Shown one piece after another: positions 3,289 through 12,507 of a stretch of DNA of 64,000 nt. The translations under genes were made by a program, and so were the position numbers. The first letter of the stretch is position 1. Each line of letters begins with the position of its first letter. This DNA is from an uncultured Gammaproteobacteria bacterium (lineage in GTDB: Bacteria > Patescibacteriota > Microgenomatia > UBA8517): contig CAYSEQ010000001.1 of assembly GCA_964430475.1 (NCBI GenBank), positions 13,659-77,658 on the forward strand, read 5' to 3'. The notes under the pieces are model-generated. The model had not been told where the DNA came from, did not search any database, and saw only the letters and a list, made by a program, of their open reading frames with translations.

Positions 3289-3697
3289 ATGAACAAAACT
3301 TTTATTTTTGTACTAGTCGCTCTAGTGTTCGTTGGTAGCATTGTCTTTCGTCTAGCAACTCATAACACCAACTCCACCAATACAAAGCAAATGATGAAGT
3401 TAGACAACTTGCGTCATGCAACACTTAAGATTGACGGTATGGATTGTGTCTCCTGTGCTTACAATATAGAAAATGCTCTTAAGGATACACCTGGTATCGT
3501 AAATGTTTCGGTTGGGTTTGTTGGGGAGAAAGTAGTAAGCGGAACTGGCGAGGGACGAGGTTATTTACGATTCTACAAAAACAACCTCGGATAAAATAAT
3601 CTCAAAAATTTTACCTTACAAGGGAACACTCCTAACCGAACAAAACACCAATAATAGTGTGGAGCTTACGCCACTTCCTAAAACATTTGGTTTTTAA
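3289..3697 (+). pseudogene. merP: merP-like periplasmic heavy-metal-binding (HMA) protein, frameshifted near 3540-3560
   Basis: Signal/TM segment then LKIDGMDCVSCAYNIENALKDTPGIVNVSVGFVGEKVV (GMxCxxC). The rest of the HMA fold, VIYDSTKTTSDKIISKILPYKGTLLTEQ, continues in the +1 frame to a stop at ~3697. Confidence 0.5.
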
Positions 3698-8416: not shown

Positions 8417-8506
8417 GCCGAGGTGGCGGAATAGGTAGACGCCCGGGCCTTAAGAGCCCGTGTTGCAACTAGCAACGTGTGGGTTCGAGTCCCACCCTCG
8501 GCACCA
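8417..8506 (+). tRNA. tRNA-Leu (anticodon TAA), type II with long variable arm, CCA encoded
   Basis: GCCGAGG...CGGGC-CTTAAGA-GCCCG...variable arm TGTTGCAACTAGCAACG...GTGGG-TTCGAGT-CCCAC-CCTCGGC-A-CCA. Confidence 0.8.
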
Positions 8507-8710
8507 AAACCCGCAAAAATTTTTCTTTCATTTTCTTTTAGGAAGCGCGCGCAAAATCCGCCGAAGGCGGACAAAAAGGTAAGAAAATTTTTGTGGGTTT
8601 TGTTCTGCGCTAAACGCGCAGGCGGAGCCGCTCCCTCCCTCACCGCGCCTTCGGCGCGGAAACAGACGGGCAAAAAGGAAGGGGGTCTGGGGGAAGGAAT
8701 TTTTGCCCGC

Positions 8711-8753
8711 CTGCTTGGATTTAACTCTGAAAAATTGGAGCGGAGGCGGAACA
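8711..8753. repeat. Left 43-bp inverted repeat bounding the arsenic cassette
   Basis: ctgcttggatttaactctgaaaaattggagcggaggcggaaca. Its reverse complement at 12054-12096 is identical except for 2 mismatches. Confidence 0.7.
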
Positions 8754-8825
8754 CATTAAAAAGTCGTCCTTGCCCCACCACATCCGTGCGCAGGCGACAA
8801 CAAGGAACTCCCCAAAATCTTACGA

Positions 8826-9074
8826 TTAACCGCAACACCCTCCGCCCGGATTGCAACCGCCAGCACGGCTTCGTAAATTCTTGACATAGTTGTCGAAATC
8901 AAAACTCTCCTTTTTTGTCGAACTCGTTTGCCTAAACTCGTCGCATTCAGAACCGCATTCGGAACATTTTGCCACGCGCTTCCAGCACGGGCCGTAAATG
9001 GAACTTGTATATTCCCGTTTTAGTCCCTCAGCTTCAAAAACCTTTTGACACTTTTGGCAATAGAATTTGTCCAT
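8826..9074 (-). CDS. FmdB-like CxxC...CxxC zinc-ribbon protein with a Gly/Cys tail (…GGCNPGGGCCG)
   Basis: Likely start is the ATG at 9074 (MDKFYCQKCQKVFEAEG...CSECGSEC...), 4 nt after the stop of the upstream gene. The longer ORF-track start at 9161 would overlap the upstream gene. Confidence 0.45.
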   Translation of the reverse strand: MDKFYCQKCQKVFEAEGLKREYTSSIYGPCWKRVAKCSECGSECDEFRQTSSTKKESFDFDNYVKNLRSRAGGCNPGGGCCG

Positions 9075-9078
9075 ATTT

Positions 9079-9438
9079 TTAGCCGCAACATCCGCCGCCG
9101 CCCGCAAAAGGCACGCCGGTAATGGCGGTAAGCTGATTACAAATTTTGCGCGCCAGAGCAACAGCGGTATTTTGTGCTCTTAAATATTCCATGCAAATTT
9201 CATTTTGTCTCATTTTTGCCTGCGCGTCGCGAAGTTCTTGCTGTTGTTCAATGGAAACCGGCAGGCCGTTTTGCTGTAAAATCGCAATAGTTTGTATTCG
9301 TTCTTGAACATCCTGAAACACATTCAATGCGCTTTTATCATTTTCCAGTTTTTCAGCCGCTTTTTGGAATCTGATAAACTCCGGCGTCTGCTTAATATAA
9401 TCGCTGAACTCTTTAATTTTTTGATCTAAATTGTTCAT
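9079..9438 (-). CDS. YheA/YmcA/YlbF-like (UPF0342) helical protein with the same Gly/Cys tail (…FAGGGGCCG)
   Basis: 119 aa. IKQTPEFIRFQKAAEKLENDKSALNVFQDVQERIQTIAILQQNG...EYLRAQNTAVALARKI is the YheA-like pattern. Confidence 0.45.
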   Translation of the reverse strand: MNNLDQKIKEFSDYIKQTPEFIRFQKAAEKLENDKSALNVFQDVQERIQTIAILQQNGLPVSIEQQQELRDAQAKMRQNEICMEYLRAQNTAVALARKICNQLTAITGVPFAGGGGCCG

Positions 9439-9470: not shown

Positions 9471-11333
9471 TTATTGTTTTCCATAAAGCATATAACCAGC
9501 AATTTTTAGTTTCTCTTTTCCGATCAAGTCATCGACCAAAAGCGGTAATTTTACAATCGGCGCAGTGAACCTTTTATCCATTTCCGCAAGATATTTTTCC
9601 TCCATCGCCTTTCTTTGTCTTAAATAATCGTTGGTTATTATGGATTGCGGCAAAATAAAGTTTGCCACCACCAAGCTTGTGGGGACGCCGATGGTTAAAA
9701 GCTCTTCCATAGCGCGAGCCGCCTCTTCAATTGGCGTGGACTCCGGATACATCACAAAACTGAAAGTTGTTTGATTGATGTCTTGCATCATATCAATTAC
9801 TTCCTTAAAACGCGACTTGGTTATTTTATCAACCTCTGTTTCGCCGGTTGAAGTAAAAGTTTTGATCTCTATCTGTTTACTCCAATCAACCGGCAGCTCC
9901 AATAACCGCAAGGTGTGGCCGGTCGGGGCAGTGTCAAAGATAATTACTTCAAAATCTTTACGAGTCGCGAAATCAATAAATTTTTCAAAAGTAGCCATTT
10001 CTTCAGTGCAGGGTGAATCAAGTTCTTCTTCAATCGCGGATACTCTTTGTTTGTCATATTTTTGTCTTGCTTCTGACAAAATTTTTTCTTTGTATTCTTC
10101 GGTCGCCTTCTTGGTATCAATGTTGGCTGCCCATAAATTTGTTTCTCCATTTACTGCCGTCGGCTCGCCTGAAATTTCTTGCTCGAAGACCTGATTTAAG
10201 TGAGAGGCCGGATCAGTTGTTAAAATCAGAGTTTTGTATTTTTGTTCTGCCACCCAAATGCTGGTTGCCGCCGCAACCGAGGTTTTGCCTACACCGCCCT
10301 TGCCCGCAAAGAAGATCGCCCGTCTTTTTCCATTTTGGGGGACAAGCAGCTGTTTTATTCTTTCGTCTATTTTGGGGAAATTATTCCTTATTATCTTTGC
10401 TTTATCCACATCAACTTTTAACGGCTGATAGTCGCTTAATTTTAGGGCTTGTTCGTGAAGCTTTTTGCCTGTTTGAAGTAGTAGTTTTTTACCTTTGATT
10501 TCATTCGGCTCTAGCTCCATCAAGGTTATGGGAACGGAAAACTTGTTTTTGATAAGTTCCAAAAATTTCTGCTGTTTGGCAAAGCGAGCGAGCATAAAAG
10601 GATTATCGCAAGCACTTTTTGGATAAATGCCGTTGATAATGAGCTCTTGCGAGTTTATTTTGAGTTTCAAAAGTTCGGCGATTGAACGTTCCGCTTCATA
10701 AATAGGCGTAACTTCCGGGCGCAGGACAAAAACAAAAGTGGTTCTGGAAGTATCGCGCATTGCCGCAATCGCTTGGTCAAATTTAGCCTTTGACTCAGCT
10801 AGCGCGGCTGCCGGACCGATGCAGGTTTGGCCGCCGCCTTCTTCTTTGGCGGCTTTTTCAATAACCCCGCTCCACTCTACGGGTAGTTTCAAAAGCCGCA
10901 GCGTATGTCCAGTTGGCGCAGTGTCAAAAATGACTATGTCGTATTCCGGTTCTTGCAAAAAATCAGTAAAGCGGTCAAAGGCGGCCATTTCGGCGGTGCA
11001 GGGCGAATTTAGTTGTTCTTCTAAAACTTTAAAACTTTCAATCGGAATTAAGCCGCGCAGAGGAGATAAAGTTCGCTCTTTGTACTCGGCAGTGGCAATA
11101 TCCGGGTCAAGTTCCATGGCAAATAAATTTTTTATGCCATAGATTGGAGTAATTTTGTGTCCTATTTTTTGTTCAAACACATCGGCGAGATTTGACGCAG
11201 GGTCAGTGGTAATAATAAGCGTTTTCTTGTTTTGGCTTGCAAAATAAGCCGCACTGAAAGCGGCCATCGTGGTTTTTCCAACGCCGCCTTTGCCTGAAAA
11301 GAAATAAAATTTTGTGTTCATATTATTTTTCAT
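9471..11333 (-). CDS. arsA: Arsenical pump-driving ATPase ArsA (tandem A1-A2 halves)
   Basis: Two P-loops GKGGVGKTT/GKGGVGKTS and two DTAPTGHTLRLL motifs. Metalloid-site Cys motifs SPCTAEMAAFDRF and SPCTEEMATFEKF. Start taken at the internal MKNNMNTKFYFF; the track's 5' extension overlaps arsD. Confidence 0.9.
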   Translation of the reverse strand: MKNNMNTKFYFFSGKGGVGKTTMAAFSAAYFASQNKKTLIITTDPASNLADVFEQKIGHKITPIYGIKNLFAMELDPDIATAEYKERTLSPLRGLIPIESFKVLEEQLNSPCTAEMAAFDRFTDFLQEPEYDIVIFDTAPTGHTLRLLKLPVEWSGVIEKAAKEEGGGQTCIGPAAALAESKAKFDQAIAAMRDTSRTTFVFVLRPEVTPIYEAERSIAELLKLKINSQELIINGIYPKSACDNPFMLARFAKQQKFLELIKNKFSVPITLMELEPNEIKGKKLLLQTGKKLHEQALKLSDYQPLKVDVDKAKIIRNNFPKIDERIKQLLVPQNGKRRAIFFAGKGGVGKTSVAAATSIWVAEQKYKTLILTTDPASHLNQVFEQEISGEPTAVNGETNLWAANIDTKKATEEYKEKILSEARQKYDKQRVSAIEEELDSPCTEEMATFEKFIDFATRKDFEVIIFDTAPTGHTLRLLELPVDWSKQIEIKTFTSTGETEVDKITKSRFKEVIDMMQDINQTTFSFVMYPESTPIEEAARAMEELLTIGVPTSLVVANFILPQSIITNDYLRQRKAMEEKYLAEMDKRFTAPIVKLPLLVDDLIGKEKLKIAGYMLYGKQ

Positions 11334-11631
11334 TGATAAATTTCTTAAGCTCTTCGAGCGTGGGGTATGAGCCGGTTTTAACGACTTTTCCGTCACAAGT
11401 AGTAATTGGCAATGCTTTCAGCTGTTGTTCTTGGATTAGTTTTATTACATCCGGGTTTTCCTTGAATTTTTGAGGACTTTGAGTAATGAGCCACCGTTCG
11501 ACTTCCACGCCTAACTTTTTGACTTTTTCCAATGTATCCTGCAAATTGATAAGCGTTTGATCCGGGTTCGGCCCGCAGACGCCGGTTGAACAGCACATCG
11601 GAGGATCATAGATAACGATTTTATTTTTCAT
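11323..11631 (-). CDS. arsD: Arsenic metallochaperone / repressor ArsD
   Basis: MKNKIVIYDPPMCCSTGVCGPNPDQ, the ArsD CCxxGxCG motif. 102 aa. Confidence 0.85.
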   Translation of the reverse strand: MKNKIVIYDPPMCCSTGVCGPNPDQTLINLQDTLEKVKKLGVEVERWLITQSPQKFKENPDVIKLIQEQQLKALPITTCDGKVVKTGSYPTLEELKKFINEK

Positions 11632-11965
11632 AATTTTTGGTTAACTGACGACAAACATCATGCGAAGTGCATGGTTTATCGGAAATATTGTTAGAATTTA
11701 AAATTTTTTGGTACAAACTCTCCAACTCTTCAAATTTTTTCTTATTCAAGGAGCAATGCACCCACCTCCCGACCTTTCTGTCTTTGATAAGCCCGGCTTC
11801 TCGCAATGTCTGCAAATGATGGGACACGAGTGTTTGTTCCAAACCCAATTTTTCCGCCAGTACGCAAACGCATTCTTCGCCCCTCATTAAACACAGAACG
11901 ATCTTGTATCTGTTCTTGTCAGATAAAATTCTTATGTAGTTGAGTAATTTTTCGTTTTCCTTCAT
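11621..11965 (-). CDS. arsR: ArsR/SmtB-family metalloregulator
   Basis: HTH with the ECVCVL metal-sensing motif. Overlaps arsD by 11 nt. Confidence 0.85.
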   Translation of the reverse strand: MKENEKLLNYIRILSDKNRYKIVLCLMRGEECVCVLAEKLGLEQTLVSHHLQTLREAGLIKDRKVGRWVHCSLNKKKFEELESLYQKILNSNNISDKPCTSHDVCRQLTKNYEK

Positions 11966-12053: not shown

Positions 12054-12096
12054 TGTTCCGCCCCCGCTCCAATTTTTCAGAGTTAAATCCGAGCAG
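12054..12096. repeat. Right 43-bp inverted repeat bounding the arsenic cassette
   Basis: Reverse complement of 8711-8753 (ctgctcggatttaactctgaaaaattggagcgggggcggaaca). Confidence 0.7.
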
Positions 12097-12224: not shown

Positions 12225-12297
12225 CGGGGTGTGGCTCAGCTGGTAGAGCGCACGGTTTGGGACCGTGAGGTCCCCGGTTCGAATCCGGGCACCCCGA
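12225..12297 (+). tRNA. tRNA-Pro (anticodon TGG)
   Basis: CGGGGTG...CACGG-TTTGGGA-CCGTG...CCCGG-TTCGAAT-CCGGG-CACCCCG-A. Confidence 0.8.
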
Positions 12298-12507
12298 CAC
12301 ACAACAAAAGGAAATTTAAATTTTATTCTTTATTCTTTATTCTTTATAATAAGAGATTCTGAATTAGACAAAGAGAGATTTGAATCCTCGTATTCCAAGA
12401 CCCAAGCTTTATTCAGATGTTCAGATTTTTGGATCTAAAGATAGAGTTCAAGGCCAAAAGAGAGGAAGATTTTAGTCATTTTCTAATTTAAAAAGTTTTT
12501 TGTTTTT

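Follow-up and report, generated by a model that had tools for sequence, protein, structure and literature searches.

A bacterial counterpart of the haloarchaeal HcsL/HcsS pair: small proteins with paired-cysteine tails encoded downstream of arsA

An arsenic resistance (ars) operon is found on a contig (CAYSEQ010000001.1) of an uncultured bacterium of the Patescibacteriota, and its last two genes are the subject of this report. The whole stretch of 64,000 nucleotides that was analysed is referred to as the window. According to open reading frames (ORFs) and hidden Markov model (HMM) searches, five genes follow each other on the minus strand: arsR, arsD, arsA, a gene for a helical protein resembling haloarchaeal HcsL and a gene for a zinc-ribbon protein, which occupies the position of haloarchaeal HcsS. 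The genes of the operon and the parts of the two small proteins, as delimited in AlphaFold2 (AF2) models, are as follows.

11621..11965, minus strand: arsR, ArsR/SmtB metalloregulator, first gene of the operon (Pfam HTH_5, E 3.1e-15; NCBIfam HTH_metalloreg, 85.5 bits)
11323..11631, minus strand: arsD, metallochaperone (Pfam ArsD, E 1.8e-32; NCBIfam chaperon_ArsD, 114.5 bits against a cutoff of 90)
9471..11396, minus strand: arsA, two-domain ATPase of an 'ArsA_halo'-like clade (longest ORF, from GTG at 11396)
9079..9438, minus strand: HcsL-like protein of YlbF/YmcA fold, 119 residues, five helices, ending in GGGGCCG before the stop codon
9082..9117, minus strand: flexible C-terminal tail of the HcsL-like protein, residues 108-119, GVPFAGGGGCCG, with Cys117-Cys118 (AF2)
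8826..9074, minus strand: zinc-ribbon protein in the HcsS position, 82 residues, starting with MDKFYCQKCQ and ending in GGCNPGGGCCG before the stop codon
8931..9074, minus strand: zinc-ribbon-type beta domain, residues 1-48, with CxxC at 6-9 and 37-40 and an IYGPCWK motif (AF2)
8829..8864, minus strand: disordered tail of the zinc-ribbon protein, residues 71-82, with Cys74-x5-Cys80-Cys81-Gly (AF2, alignment)

The original prediction had pointed to two small proteins with a common Gly/Cys tail that is encoded by similar DNA, and both the ORFs and the codons are indeed seen on the minus strand. It had also placed a 4-nt spacing after arsA. In fact, 4 nt (TAA-AAAT-ATG) separate the two small genes from each other, while 32 nt lie between arsA and the YlbF-like gene. 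The C-terminus of the 119-residue protein is GVPFAGGGGCCG, directly followed by the stop codon. Its last codons are GGA TGT TGC GGC TAA and those of the zinc-ribbon gene are GGG TGT TGC GGT TAA, in agreement with the DNA quoted earlier (ggNtgttgcggNtaa), so that the pattern common to both is GGN-TGT-TGC-GGN-TAA. As cysteine accounts for 0.75% of the residues in the long ORFs of the window, about 1.7e-4 of proteins should have a CC pair among their last four residues, and the chance of two adjacent CC tails, computed from the same Cys content, is about 3e-8. Among the 137 ORFs of at least 60 residues in the window there is just one further CC ending. It belongs to an ORF of 98 residues at 2609-2905 which ends in ...LSCCI. 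Tails that are expected this rarely and are nevertheless kept in homologues, as described below, are not explained by chance.

The first of the two proteins had been described as a YheA/YmcA-like helical protein, and this description is correct. It matches Com_YlbF (PF06133) over profile positions 3-101 of 105 with 55.7 bits (gathering cutoff 23.9, E 7.8e-15), and the assignment to this family holds. The AF2 model has a predicted local distance difference test (pLDDT) score of 93.8 and consists of five helices followed by an unstructured segment, residues 108-119; the last block of ten residues has a mean pLDDT of 55 and no secondary structure. When the model was compared to the PDB with Foldseek, the top matches were 6prk (RicA/RicF), 2iaz, 2oeq, 2pih and 2oee with template modelling (TM) scores of 0.55-0.74, and the names found among them besides RicA/RicF are SP1372, DUF964, YmcA and YheA.

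A CC-x ending is kept in all 28 full-length close homologues of this protein (57-85% identity). C117 and C118 are near-invariant in these homologues and so is Cys100 in the clade of the window protein. A profile search over 1.84 billion representative proteins resulted in 200 matches, and the endings were tallied for the best 149 of them. CC plus 0-2 residues ends 77 of these 149 sequences, with 32 cases of CC-stop, 34 of CCG-stop and 4 of CCS-stop. The pair is preceded by Gly or Ser, and a third Cys is found 1-5 residues upstream in 31 of the 77 CC-tailed relatives. Homologues as distant as 25-30% identity keep the ending. Across relatives with 25-66% identity, which had been chosen for their CC tail, C117 and C118 are the only invariant residues besides M1. 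Relatives which have similar scores and no tail Cys also exist among the profile matches. Eight relatives are of double length with 260-289 residues (P0060, P0065, P0066, P0069, P0091, P0108, P0135, P0155). Since six of these eight are matched by the profile twice, in separate stretches, they are fusions of two YlbF-like domains, in keeping with the idea of paralogue pairs working as heterodimers. In a double-YlbF fusion, CC is found only at the true C-terminus.

In the YlbF group, a G-h-x-F motif precedes the CC pair, typically by 7-9 residues. An alignment of 47 divergent YlbF sequences has no conserved stretch of 7-10 columns. The zinc-ribbon protein contains an FDF, which was considered as the equivalent of this motif. 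It is 19 residues away and ahead of a predicted helix, and a docking motif common to both proteins is thus not claimed.

For the second protein, which had been called an FmdB-like zinc ribbon, only the latter part of the label could be retained. HMM scans of the 82 residues matched no Pfam or NCBIfam family, the score on the FmdB model TIGR02605 being E 0.55 and 10.3 bits with a cutoff of 31.3. The AF2 model has five strands in residues 1-48 with pLDDT >90, then a weaker helix, and a tail (residues 71-82) with pLDDT <50. Foldseek found nothing in the PDB at E<0.2 and generic ribbons alone above that value. Judged from the model, 'zinc ribbon' seems a reasonable label while 'FmdB-like' fails. 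FmdB proteins (Zn_ribbon_8, PF09723) are similar in being small and in having an N-terminal CxxC...CxxC ribbon with a degenerate tail behind it, and degenerate tails are characteristic of the FmdB family according to the description of TIGR02605. Membership was rejected since the protein is below the HMM threshold and its CxxC pairs are 27 residues apart compared to about 17 in the family; it also has the extra IYGPCWK motif, which is invariant in its homologues. A CC-x ending is kept in all 14 full-length close homologues (52-80% identity), and the cysteines invariant in these 14 are C6, C9, C30, C37, C40, C74, C80 and C81. The exact sequence of 82 residues is not contained in a collection of 15 billion proteins, whereas the neighbouring YlbF-like protein is. 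The gene has probably remained uncalled in the source annotation or has been called from another start, as a 111-residue ORF starting with TTG overlaps the upstream gene.

The original prediction had proposed to look for such tails near ars genes of other genomes. An arsA gene was found directly upstream of a CC-tailed YlbF homologue in about 18 distinct loci. When loci are considered informative if a CC-tailed YlbF homologue has enough flanking DNA to judge, this corresponds to about 18 of 19 informative loci, from two domains of life. Further related loci were gathered by a search with the zinc-ribbon alignment. The hosts of the arsA-linked loci are Patescibacteria, Omnitrophota, unclassified bacteria and Halobacteria. 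The CC-tailed YlbF gene comes straight after arsA in metagenome-assembled genomes of Saccharibacteria and Falkowbacteria, an Omnitrophota locus contains the arsA-linked genes together with two acr3 genes, usp and an arsM-like methyltransferase gene, and cassettes from groundwater metagenomes have at least four different outer flanks. The linkage extends to divergent YlbF members which share just 25-30% identity with the window protein (P0089, P0072, P0052, P0135, P0172). The sole exception is P0028 (L004 3-2315), which is 57% identical, follows an ABC exporter (ABC_membrane and ABC_tran) and is not followed by a zinc ribbon. Its tail is expanded, acidic and Cys-containing (...CDCDDCGSDCDCCE before the stop codon). 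As a control, a YlbF homologue without a Cys tail adjoins fur.

The tail of the zinc-ribbon family changes with the neighbourhood. Members which follow arsA and a YlbF-like gene all end in C-x5-CC-[G/N/R]-stop, and the C-x5-CC-x-stop tail is confined to arsA-linked members of the family. Members which follow arsR, an ArsE-type thioredoxin-like gene and an ArsP_1 permease gene end in ...YPFPKCACGG or ...SGCRLCGKF, with C-x-C near ArsP. A member from Lentimicrobiaceae, which has no ars genes nearby, ends in ...PGCCCSGGSCGF. Thus, the tail follows the genomic partner and not the fold.

The members near ArsP belong to a second zinc-ribbon branch (L027 5369-7886; L045-L050, L053, L054), in which arsR, the MTH895/ArsE-type gene and ArsP_1 are located upstream and genes for FeS_assembly_P (DUF59) and ferredoxin come after. 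The small protein of this branch is a further uncharacterised partner of a transport system for metalloids or thiols.

One explanation of the tails would be that there is nothing special about them, that they are ordinary low-complexity termini, typical of their families regardless of context, and that the ars neighbourhood is incidental. At least two Cys occur in the last 15 residues of 21 of the 72 non-CC YlbF relatives among the top matches, and FmdB proteins have degenerate tails, as mentioned. However, even homologues of 25-30% identity retain the CC pair, whereas relatives lacking a Cys tail occur elsewhere in the genome, as does the one beside fur, the arsA link applies to about 18 of 19 informative loci in two domains of life, and the minute chance of two adjacent CC tails has already been given. 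In addition, the tail type switches with context inside a single zinc-ribbon family, from C-x5-CC-x-stop after arsA to C-x-C beside ArsP. We consider this explanation scarcely tenable, as it is contradicted already by the context data.

These genes therefore represent a module which is a conserved accessory of ars operons. It comprises small soluble proteins, one to three in number, whose folds are unrelated to each other (a YlbF-like bundle, a zinc ribbon or the short haloarchaeal HcsS). Each has a disordered Gly/Ser-rich tail with an adjacent Cys pair at most two residues from the C-terminus and often with a third Cys 3-6 residues upstream. Its genes are coupled in translation with those for ArsD and for a distinct ArsA clade, and all of them are inherited together. 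It is the tail, not the fold, that is the conserved functional element. The suggestion of an uncharacterised ars accessory was thus right with respect to a conserved ars module, which is seen in about 18 loci, but at the level of annotation it is not uncharacterised, because NCBIfam and PGAP have names for the haloarchaeal proteins, HcsL and HcsS.

The NCBIfam entries are NF041416 ('halo-CC-star protein HcsL'), NF041415 (HcsS) and NF041417 (ArsA_halo). On a plasmid of Halobacterium sp. BOL4-2, PGAP annotates arsD-arsA-hcsL-hcsS, with HcsL ending in ...STGGGCC and HcsS in ...VCGADDDGCC. HcsL matches were found on 26 haloarchaeal plasmids, among them in the ars region of pNRC100, where the genes have the same order; the tail of the HcsS of strain NRC-1 contains no Cys other than the terminal CC. 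The HcsL model matches the 119-residue window protein over model positions 2-113 of 113 with E 2.3e-13 and 50.6 bits at a cutoff of 140, and other bacterial relatives score 58-78 bits. When the alignment of the window protein was compared with HcsL of Halobacterium sp. BOL4-2 by hhalign, the probability was 96.8% (E 2.1e-10) across 112 columns, with the tail included. On the basis of these profile comparisons, the protein is a distant HcsL homologue.

The last two genes of the window operon are the bacterial counterpart of the haloarchaeal HcsL/HcsS pair. Common to both systems are the gene order arsD-arsA-long-short with overlapping or near-abutting genes, the position of the long gene directly after an arsA of ArsA_halo type (the ArsAs being of the same clade), and the second CC-tailed small gene which follows. 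The YlbF-fold protein aligns over its full length, including ...F-A-x-GGGCC, and the tail of BOL4-2 HcsS (C-x6-CC-stop) resembles that of the window zinc ribbon (C74-x5-C80-C81-G-stop). The systems differ in their hosts, which are uncultured bacteria in one case and Halobacteria in the other, and in the tails, which are CC-Gly-stop in the window and CC-stop in haloarchaea. A further difference is that the second protein of the window is a zinc ribbon without similarity to HcsS, which is itself no zinc ribbon. The HcsS model does not match the zinc-ribbon protein even at E<=10 while a genuine HcsS has 92.7 bits. The alignment of the YlbF-like protein gave a probability of 5% against HcsS in hhalign, with only the last helix and the tail in register. 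The part of a bacterial YlbF paralogue that matches the HcsS model (E 4e-9) is the last helix with the tail, which suggests that HcsS is a truncated YlbF paralogue.

A literature search did not reveal a paper on halo-CC-star, HcsL, HcsS or YlbF with ArsA and arsenic. The arrangement has thus been catalogued already, as annotation only, and the window contains a new bacterial variant with CC-Gly tails and a zinc-ribbon partner. The set is thereby extended well beyond the reach of the haloarchaeal HMMs and a new zinc-ribbon partner family is added. Annotations as 'competence regulator YlbF' or 'hypothetical protein' would be corrected in many metagenome-assembled genomes. When a CC-tailed bacterial YlbF protein was used as tblastn query against 72,556 plasmids, haloarchaeal hcsL genes alone were found and no example from a cultured bacterium.

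The window ArsA has two ArsA_ATPase domains (Pfam E 2.5e-147). As its homologues have 614-615 residues, the true start is probably the ATG near 11333. It reaches 653 bits on ArsA_halo (NF041417, cutoff 800) and 489 bits on the canonical model TIGR04291 (cutoff 650), being below the cutoff of both. Together with seven full-length bacterial ArsAs encoded beside CC-tail genes, it falls into a range of 630-655 bits with ArsA_halo and of 480-540 bits with TIGR04291, and for either half of the split ArsA in L031, ArsA_halo again gives the higher score of the two models. According to these scores, the linked ArsAs are a distinct clade which travels with the module. The split ArsA (L031 3565-5381, GCA_034521955.1) is encoded by two half-size genes beside two YlbF paralogues ending in ...GGGCC, with a gene for an AhpD-like protein of 73 residues between the paralogues. 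In L030 (799-1484), arsA is present in fragments only. Other loci have two YlbF paralogues, the first ending in ...GCK and the second in ...GGCCG, followed by the ribbon.

When ArsA is in its closed state with ATP, As(III) is coordinated by three Cys as AsS3, and Cys12/13/18 of ArsD faces this site (PMC12415280). All three are kept in the window ArsA (SPCTAE, GQTCIGP and SPCTEE, aligned to PDB 9nbl; C113, C172 and C422 in E. coli), and the window ArsD has the canonical Cys12-Cys13-x4-Cys18 (MCCSTGVCG). ArsD is present in every locus whose sequence extends upstream of arsA. As it is always present, the CC-tail proteins are no replacement for ArsD. Like them, ArsD is a small soluble protein from the ars operon with a vicinal Cys pair and a third Cys at a distance of 4 residues (Cys12/13/18), by which As(III) is bound and passed to the Cys site of ArsA. 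The zinc-ribbon tail C-x5-CC is the mirror image of its CC-x4-C, an analogy of motifs. The differences are the thioredoxin-like fold of ArsD, the N-terminal location of its motif, its presence in the same operons and the lack of a sequence relationship.

The window cassette has no transporter gene. With Acr3, ArsC, ArsM-like and Usp queries from related loci, tblastn found nothing in the 64-kb window, while ArsB and ArsP-type permease queries were not run. ArsA is the textbook 'pump-driving' ATPase, yet many arsA operons are without ArsB. A review reports that arsB has no role in resistance of Halobacterium NRC-1 and that an unidentified ArsA partner has been proposed (PMC3600143). ArsB-less or ArsB-independent arsA is thus represented by Halobacterium NRC-1 (PMC3600143) and by the pump-less, probably mobile cassette of the window. 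As the Cys-tailed pair is inherited with one ArsA clade in Archaea and Bacteria, its members are obvious candidates for the missing ArsA partners.

Overall, the best reading in our opinion is that the tails serve as thiol ligands which exchange As(III)/Sb(III) with ArsD/ArsA, and we give this about an even chance of being right. Vicinal thiolates on the Gly-rich disordered tails would bind As(III)/Sb(III). With C-x5-CC, the tail of the zinc ribbon could provide an S3 site alone, while the CC tail of the YlbF-like protein would obtain its third ligand from Cys100, from the partner tail or from an ArsA Cys. Dimerisation and docking of the folded domains, similar to those of RicA/RicF, would allow the flexible tails to reach the metalloid site between the domains of ArsA, and As(III) would be exchanged by ligand swapping in the chain from ArsD to ArsA. 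The tails might act as acceptor or buffer downstream of ArsA, with a protein-bound As(III) carrier shielding cellular thiols; alternatively, the carrier might hand As(III) on to Acr3, ArsM or another exporter. We favour a role as acceptor or carrier, given that a donor, ArsD, is found throughout and that a pump is missing from many cassettes. The reading is consistent with the AF2 models, in which both folded domains are confident and both tails are disordered, and it is plausible by analogy with the AsS3 sites of ArsD (Cys12/13/18) and ArsA (PMC12415280). Hints are provided by the single non-ArsA context, which is with another transport ATPase, the ABC exporter, and by methyltransferase genes near the module in three lineages: in pNRC100 after hcsS and arsR2, in L005 straight after the YlbF-like gene and in L016 after the zinc ribbon.

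Several points weigh against thiol exchange with ArsD/ArsA. The sequence data appear to leave the direction of transfer, to or from ArsA, unconstrained. With 4 to 6 tail Cys per module there is no fixed ligand set. Genes for AhpD-like, YedF/DsrE-like, CoaC-like flavoprotein and radical SAM/SPASM proteins in some loci hint at redox chemistry or tail modification. Finally, tail Cys of RicA/RicF ligate a [4Fe-4S] cluster, so that Cys tails have a proven non-arsenic role in this fold family.

It is conceivable, although we attach a low probability to it, that an ArsA_halo-type ATPase and the CC-tailed proteins constitute a pump-independent defence. As(III)/Sb(III) would be loaded onto carrier tails at the expense of ATP, and the carriers would sequester it or present it to ArsM, Acr3 or another exporter. 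If the tailed proteins are such carriers, this would provide the long-missing ArsA partner in Halobacterium and in ArsB-less bacteria, and a protein stand-in for the As(GS)3 pool where glutathione is absent. The question of the ArsA partner has now become testable in a genetically tractable host.

The precedent from the fold family leads to the main rival explanation. RicA (YmcA) and RicF (YlbF) from Bacillus subtilis, which act with RicT, have the same helical fold (6prk, 2pih), belong to the same Pfam family, form a pair of paralogues and also have Cys in disordered C-terminal tails. C134 and C146 of RicF and C141 of RicA, all from C-terminal tails, ligate [4Fe-4S] cluster 2 together with C167 of RicT, which carries a C-x4-CC motif (PMC6751060). 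By analogy, the tails of the ars proteins could jointly ligate an inter-subunit [4Fe-4S] or [2Fe-2S] cluster, and the module, instead of binding As(III) itself, would be a sensor of the redox state or of the damage that arsenic does to Fe-S clusters, or else a regulator of ArsA. The RicT motif, CX4CC, resembles the C-x3-6-CC tails. NifH, an Fe-S protein, and ArsA are members of one ATPase family, and the type-2 zinc-ribbon relatives adjoin FeS_assembly_P and ferredoxin genes. However, the Ric tails have spaced Cys (C134, C138, C144, C146) or a single Cys and no terminal CC, and Ric proteins act with RNase Y in RNA maturation, outside ars operons. A partner of RicT type (PSP1 domain, CX4CCX30CX4CC) is not in the Pfam lists of any fetched locus. 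The module is tied strictly to arsR, arsD, arsA, arsC, acr3 and arsM and not to genes for RNA processing or Fe-S biogenesis, and its Cys count is not fixed at four. The haloarchaeal hosts are aerobic, and a cluster on exposed disordered tails would be labile. Adjacent Cys seldom bind the same cluster, as discussed in PMC6751060. We regard Fe-S ligation as rather improbable.

In several loci, a gene for LMWP-type ArsC is located directly between arsA and the YlbF-like gene, and genes for AhpD-like, thioredoxin-like (ArsE family) or VKOR proteins are nearby in some loci. This would be compatible with a dithiol/disulfide redox relay, in which the tails keep the Cys of ArsD/ArsA reduced or feed electrons to LMWP-type ArsC in organisms without glutathione. 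However, the window cassette and many others lack arsC, the module comes after arsA and not after arsC, and the eight-membered ring of a vicinal disulfide is strained and would be an atypical electron carrier. We therefore think that a redox relay is quite unlikely.

In locus L016, the slot of the zinc-ribbon gene is occupied by a genuine Zn_ribbon_8 protein which ends in ...GCGPIYGPGCC. The region L016 6001-8681 codes for arsA, arsC, a YlbF protein (...GPGCC), a CoaC/HFCD-like flavoprotein, a YedF/DsrE-like protein, Zn_ribbon_8 (...GPGCC) and a methyltransferase, with the flavoprotein gene overlapping the stop codon of the YlbF gene. HFCD enzymes decarboxylate C-terminal Cys, and the flavoprotein thus raises the possibility of tail modification in systems with CC-stop tails. 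In two independent loci, L017 (1316-2566, minus strand) and L030 (2439-3692, plus strand), similar radical SAM/SPASM proteins of 415-417 residues flank the CC-tail module. Their best scores are on models for tungsten-cofactor oxidoreductase or metalloenzyme maturases, below the cutoff.

The tailed proteins could accordingly be seen as adaptors or as substrates for tail modification, with CC being the site of recognition or of modification (HFCD decarboxylation, radical-SAM crosslinking, acylation) and ArsA acting on the tail in a Get3-like manner. This would fit the requirement for CC at the true C-terminus in the double-YlbF fusion, the flavoprotein gene of L016, the radical SAM/SPASM genes adjoining the module in L017 and L030, and the homology of ArsA to Get3. 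However, the extra enzymes are not found in the window or in most loci, and the radical SAM proteins are closest to models for metalloenzyme maturases and not for peptide maturases. EpiD-type decarboxylases require a C-terminal Cys, to which half of the tails, ending in CC-G, CC-S or CC-K and thus having no terminal Cys, are a poor fit. The tails are not hydrophobic, unlike Get3 clients. We consider a modification role very unlikely, and exchange of As(III)/Sb(III) with ArsD/ArsA is the reading that we retain.

The cassette as a whole has characteristics of a mobile element. The relevant features are the following.

8711..8753, no strand: left arm of a 43-nt inverted repeat, arms 95% complementary
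12054..12096, no strand: right arm of the 43-nt inverted repeat, between arsR and tRNA-Pro, arms 95% complementary
8660..8716, minus strand: hairpin of 17 bp with a C-rich loop of 23 nt, downstream of the last gene (GGGCAAAAA...TTTTTGCCC)

The 43-nt repeat brackets the whole ars cassette and has only these two copies in the 64-kb window, where 0 are expected by chance. The cassette is located between tRNA-Leu (8417-8506) and tRNA-Pro (12225-12298). Its GC content is mostly 0.40-0.54 and goes down to 0.37 at points, with flanks of 0.24-0.39. There is no transposase between the repeat arms, and the cassettes which share the hairpin described below adjoin genes for an IS200-type transposase, a serine recombinase or toxin-antitoxin systems. 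The window cassette is thus probably a non-autonomous mobile cassette.

The hairpin is located 3′ of the last gene in a GC-rich non-coding stretch (8507-8825), which gene callers render as spurious ORFs of 93-129 residues. Folding of the region downstream of the last gene is not significantly better than that of shuffled sequence (z -1.8), and no terminator-like site was called there. The core of the hairpin is conserved 3′ of the same cassette in L008 (5127-5500), L010, L011 and L013, while the outer flanks differ. Upstream of arsR, promoter-like hexamers occur at 12032-12004 and 11992-11964, and the number of such sites is not above chance. Outside the cassette, an ORF of 101 residues at 3289-3594 contains a motif similar to that of heavy-metal-associated domains (GMDCVSCAYNIENAL).

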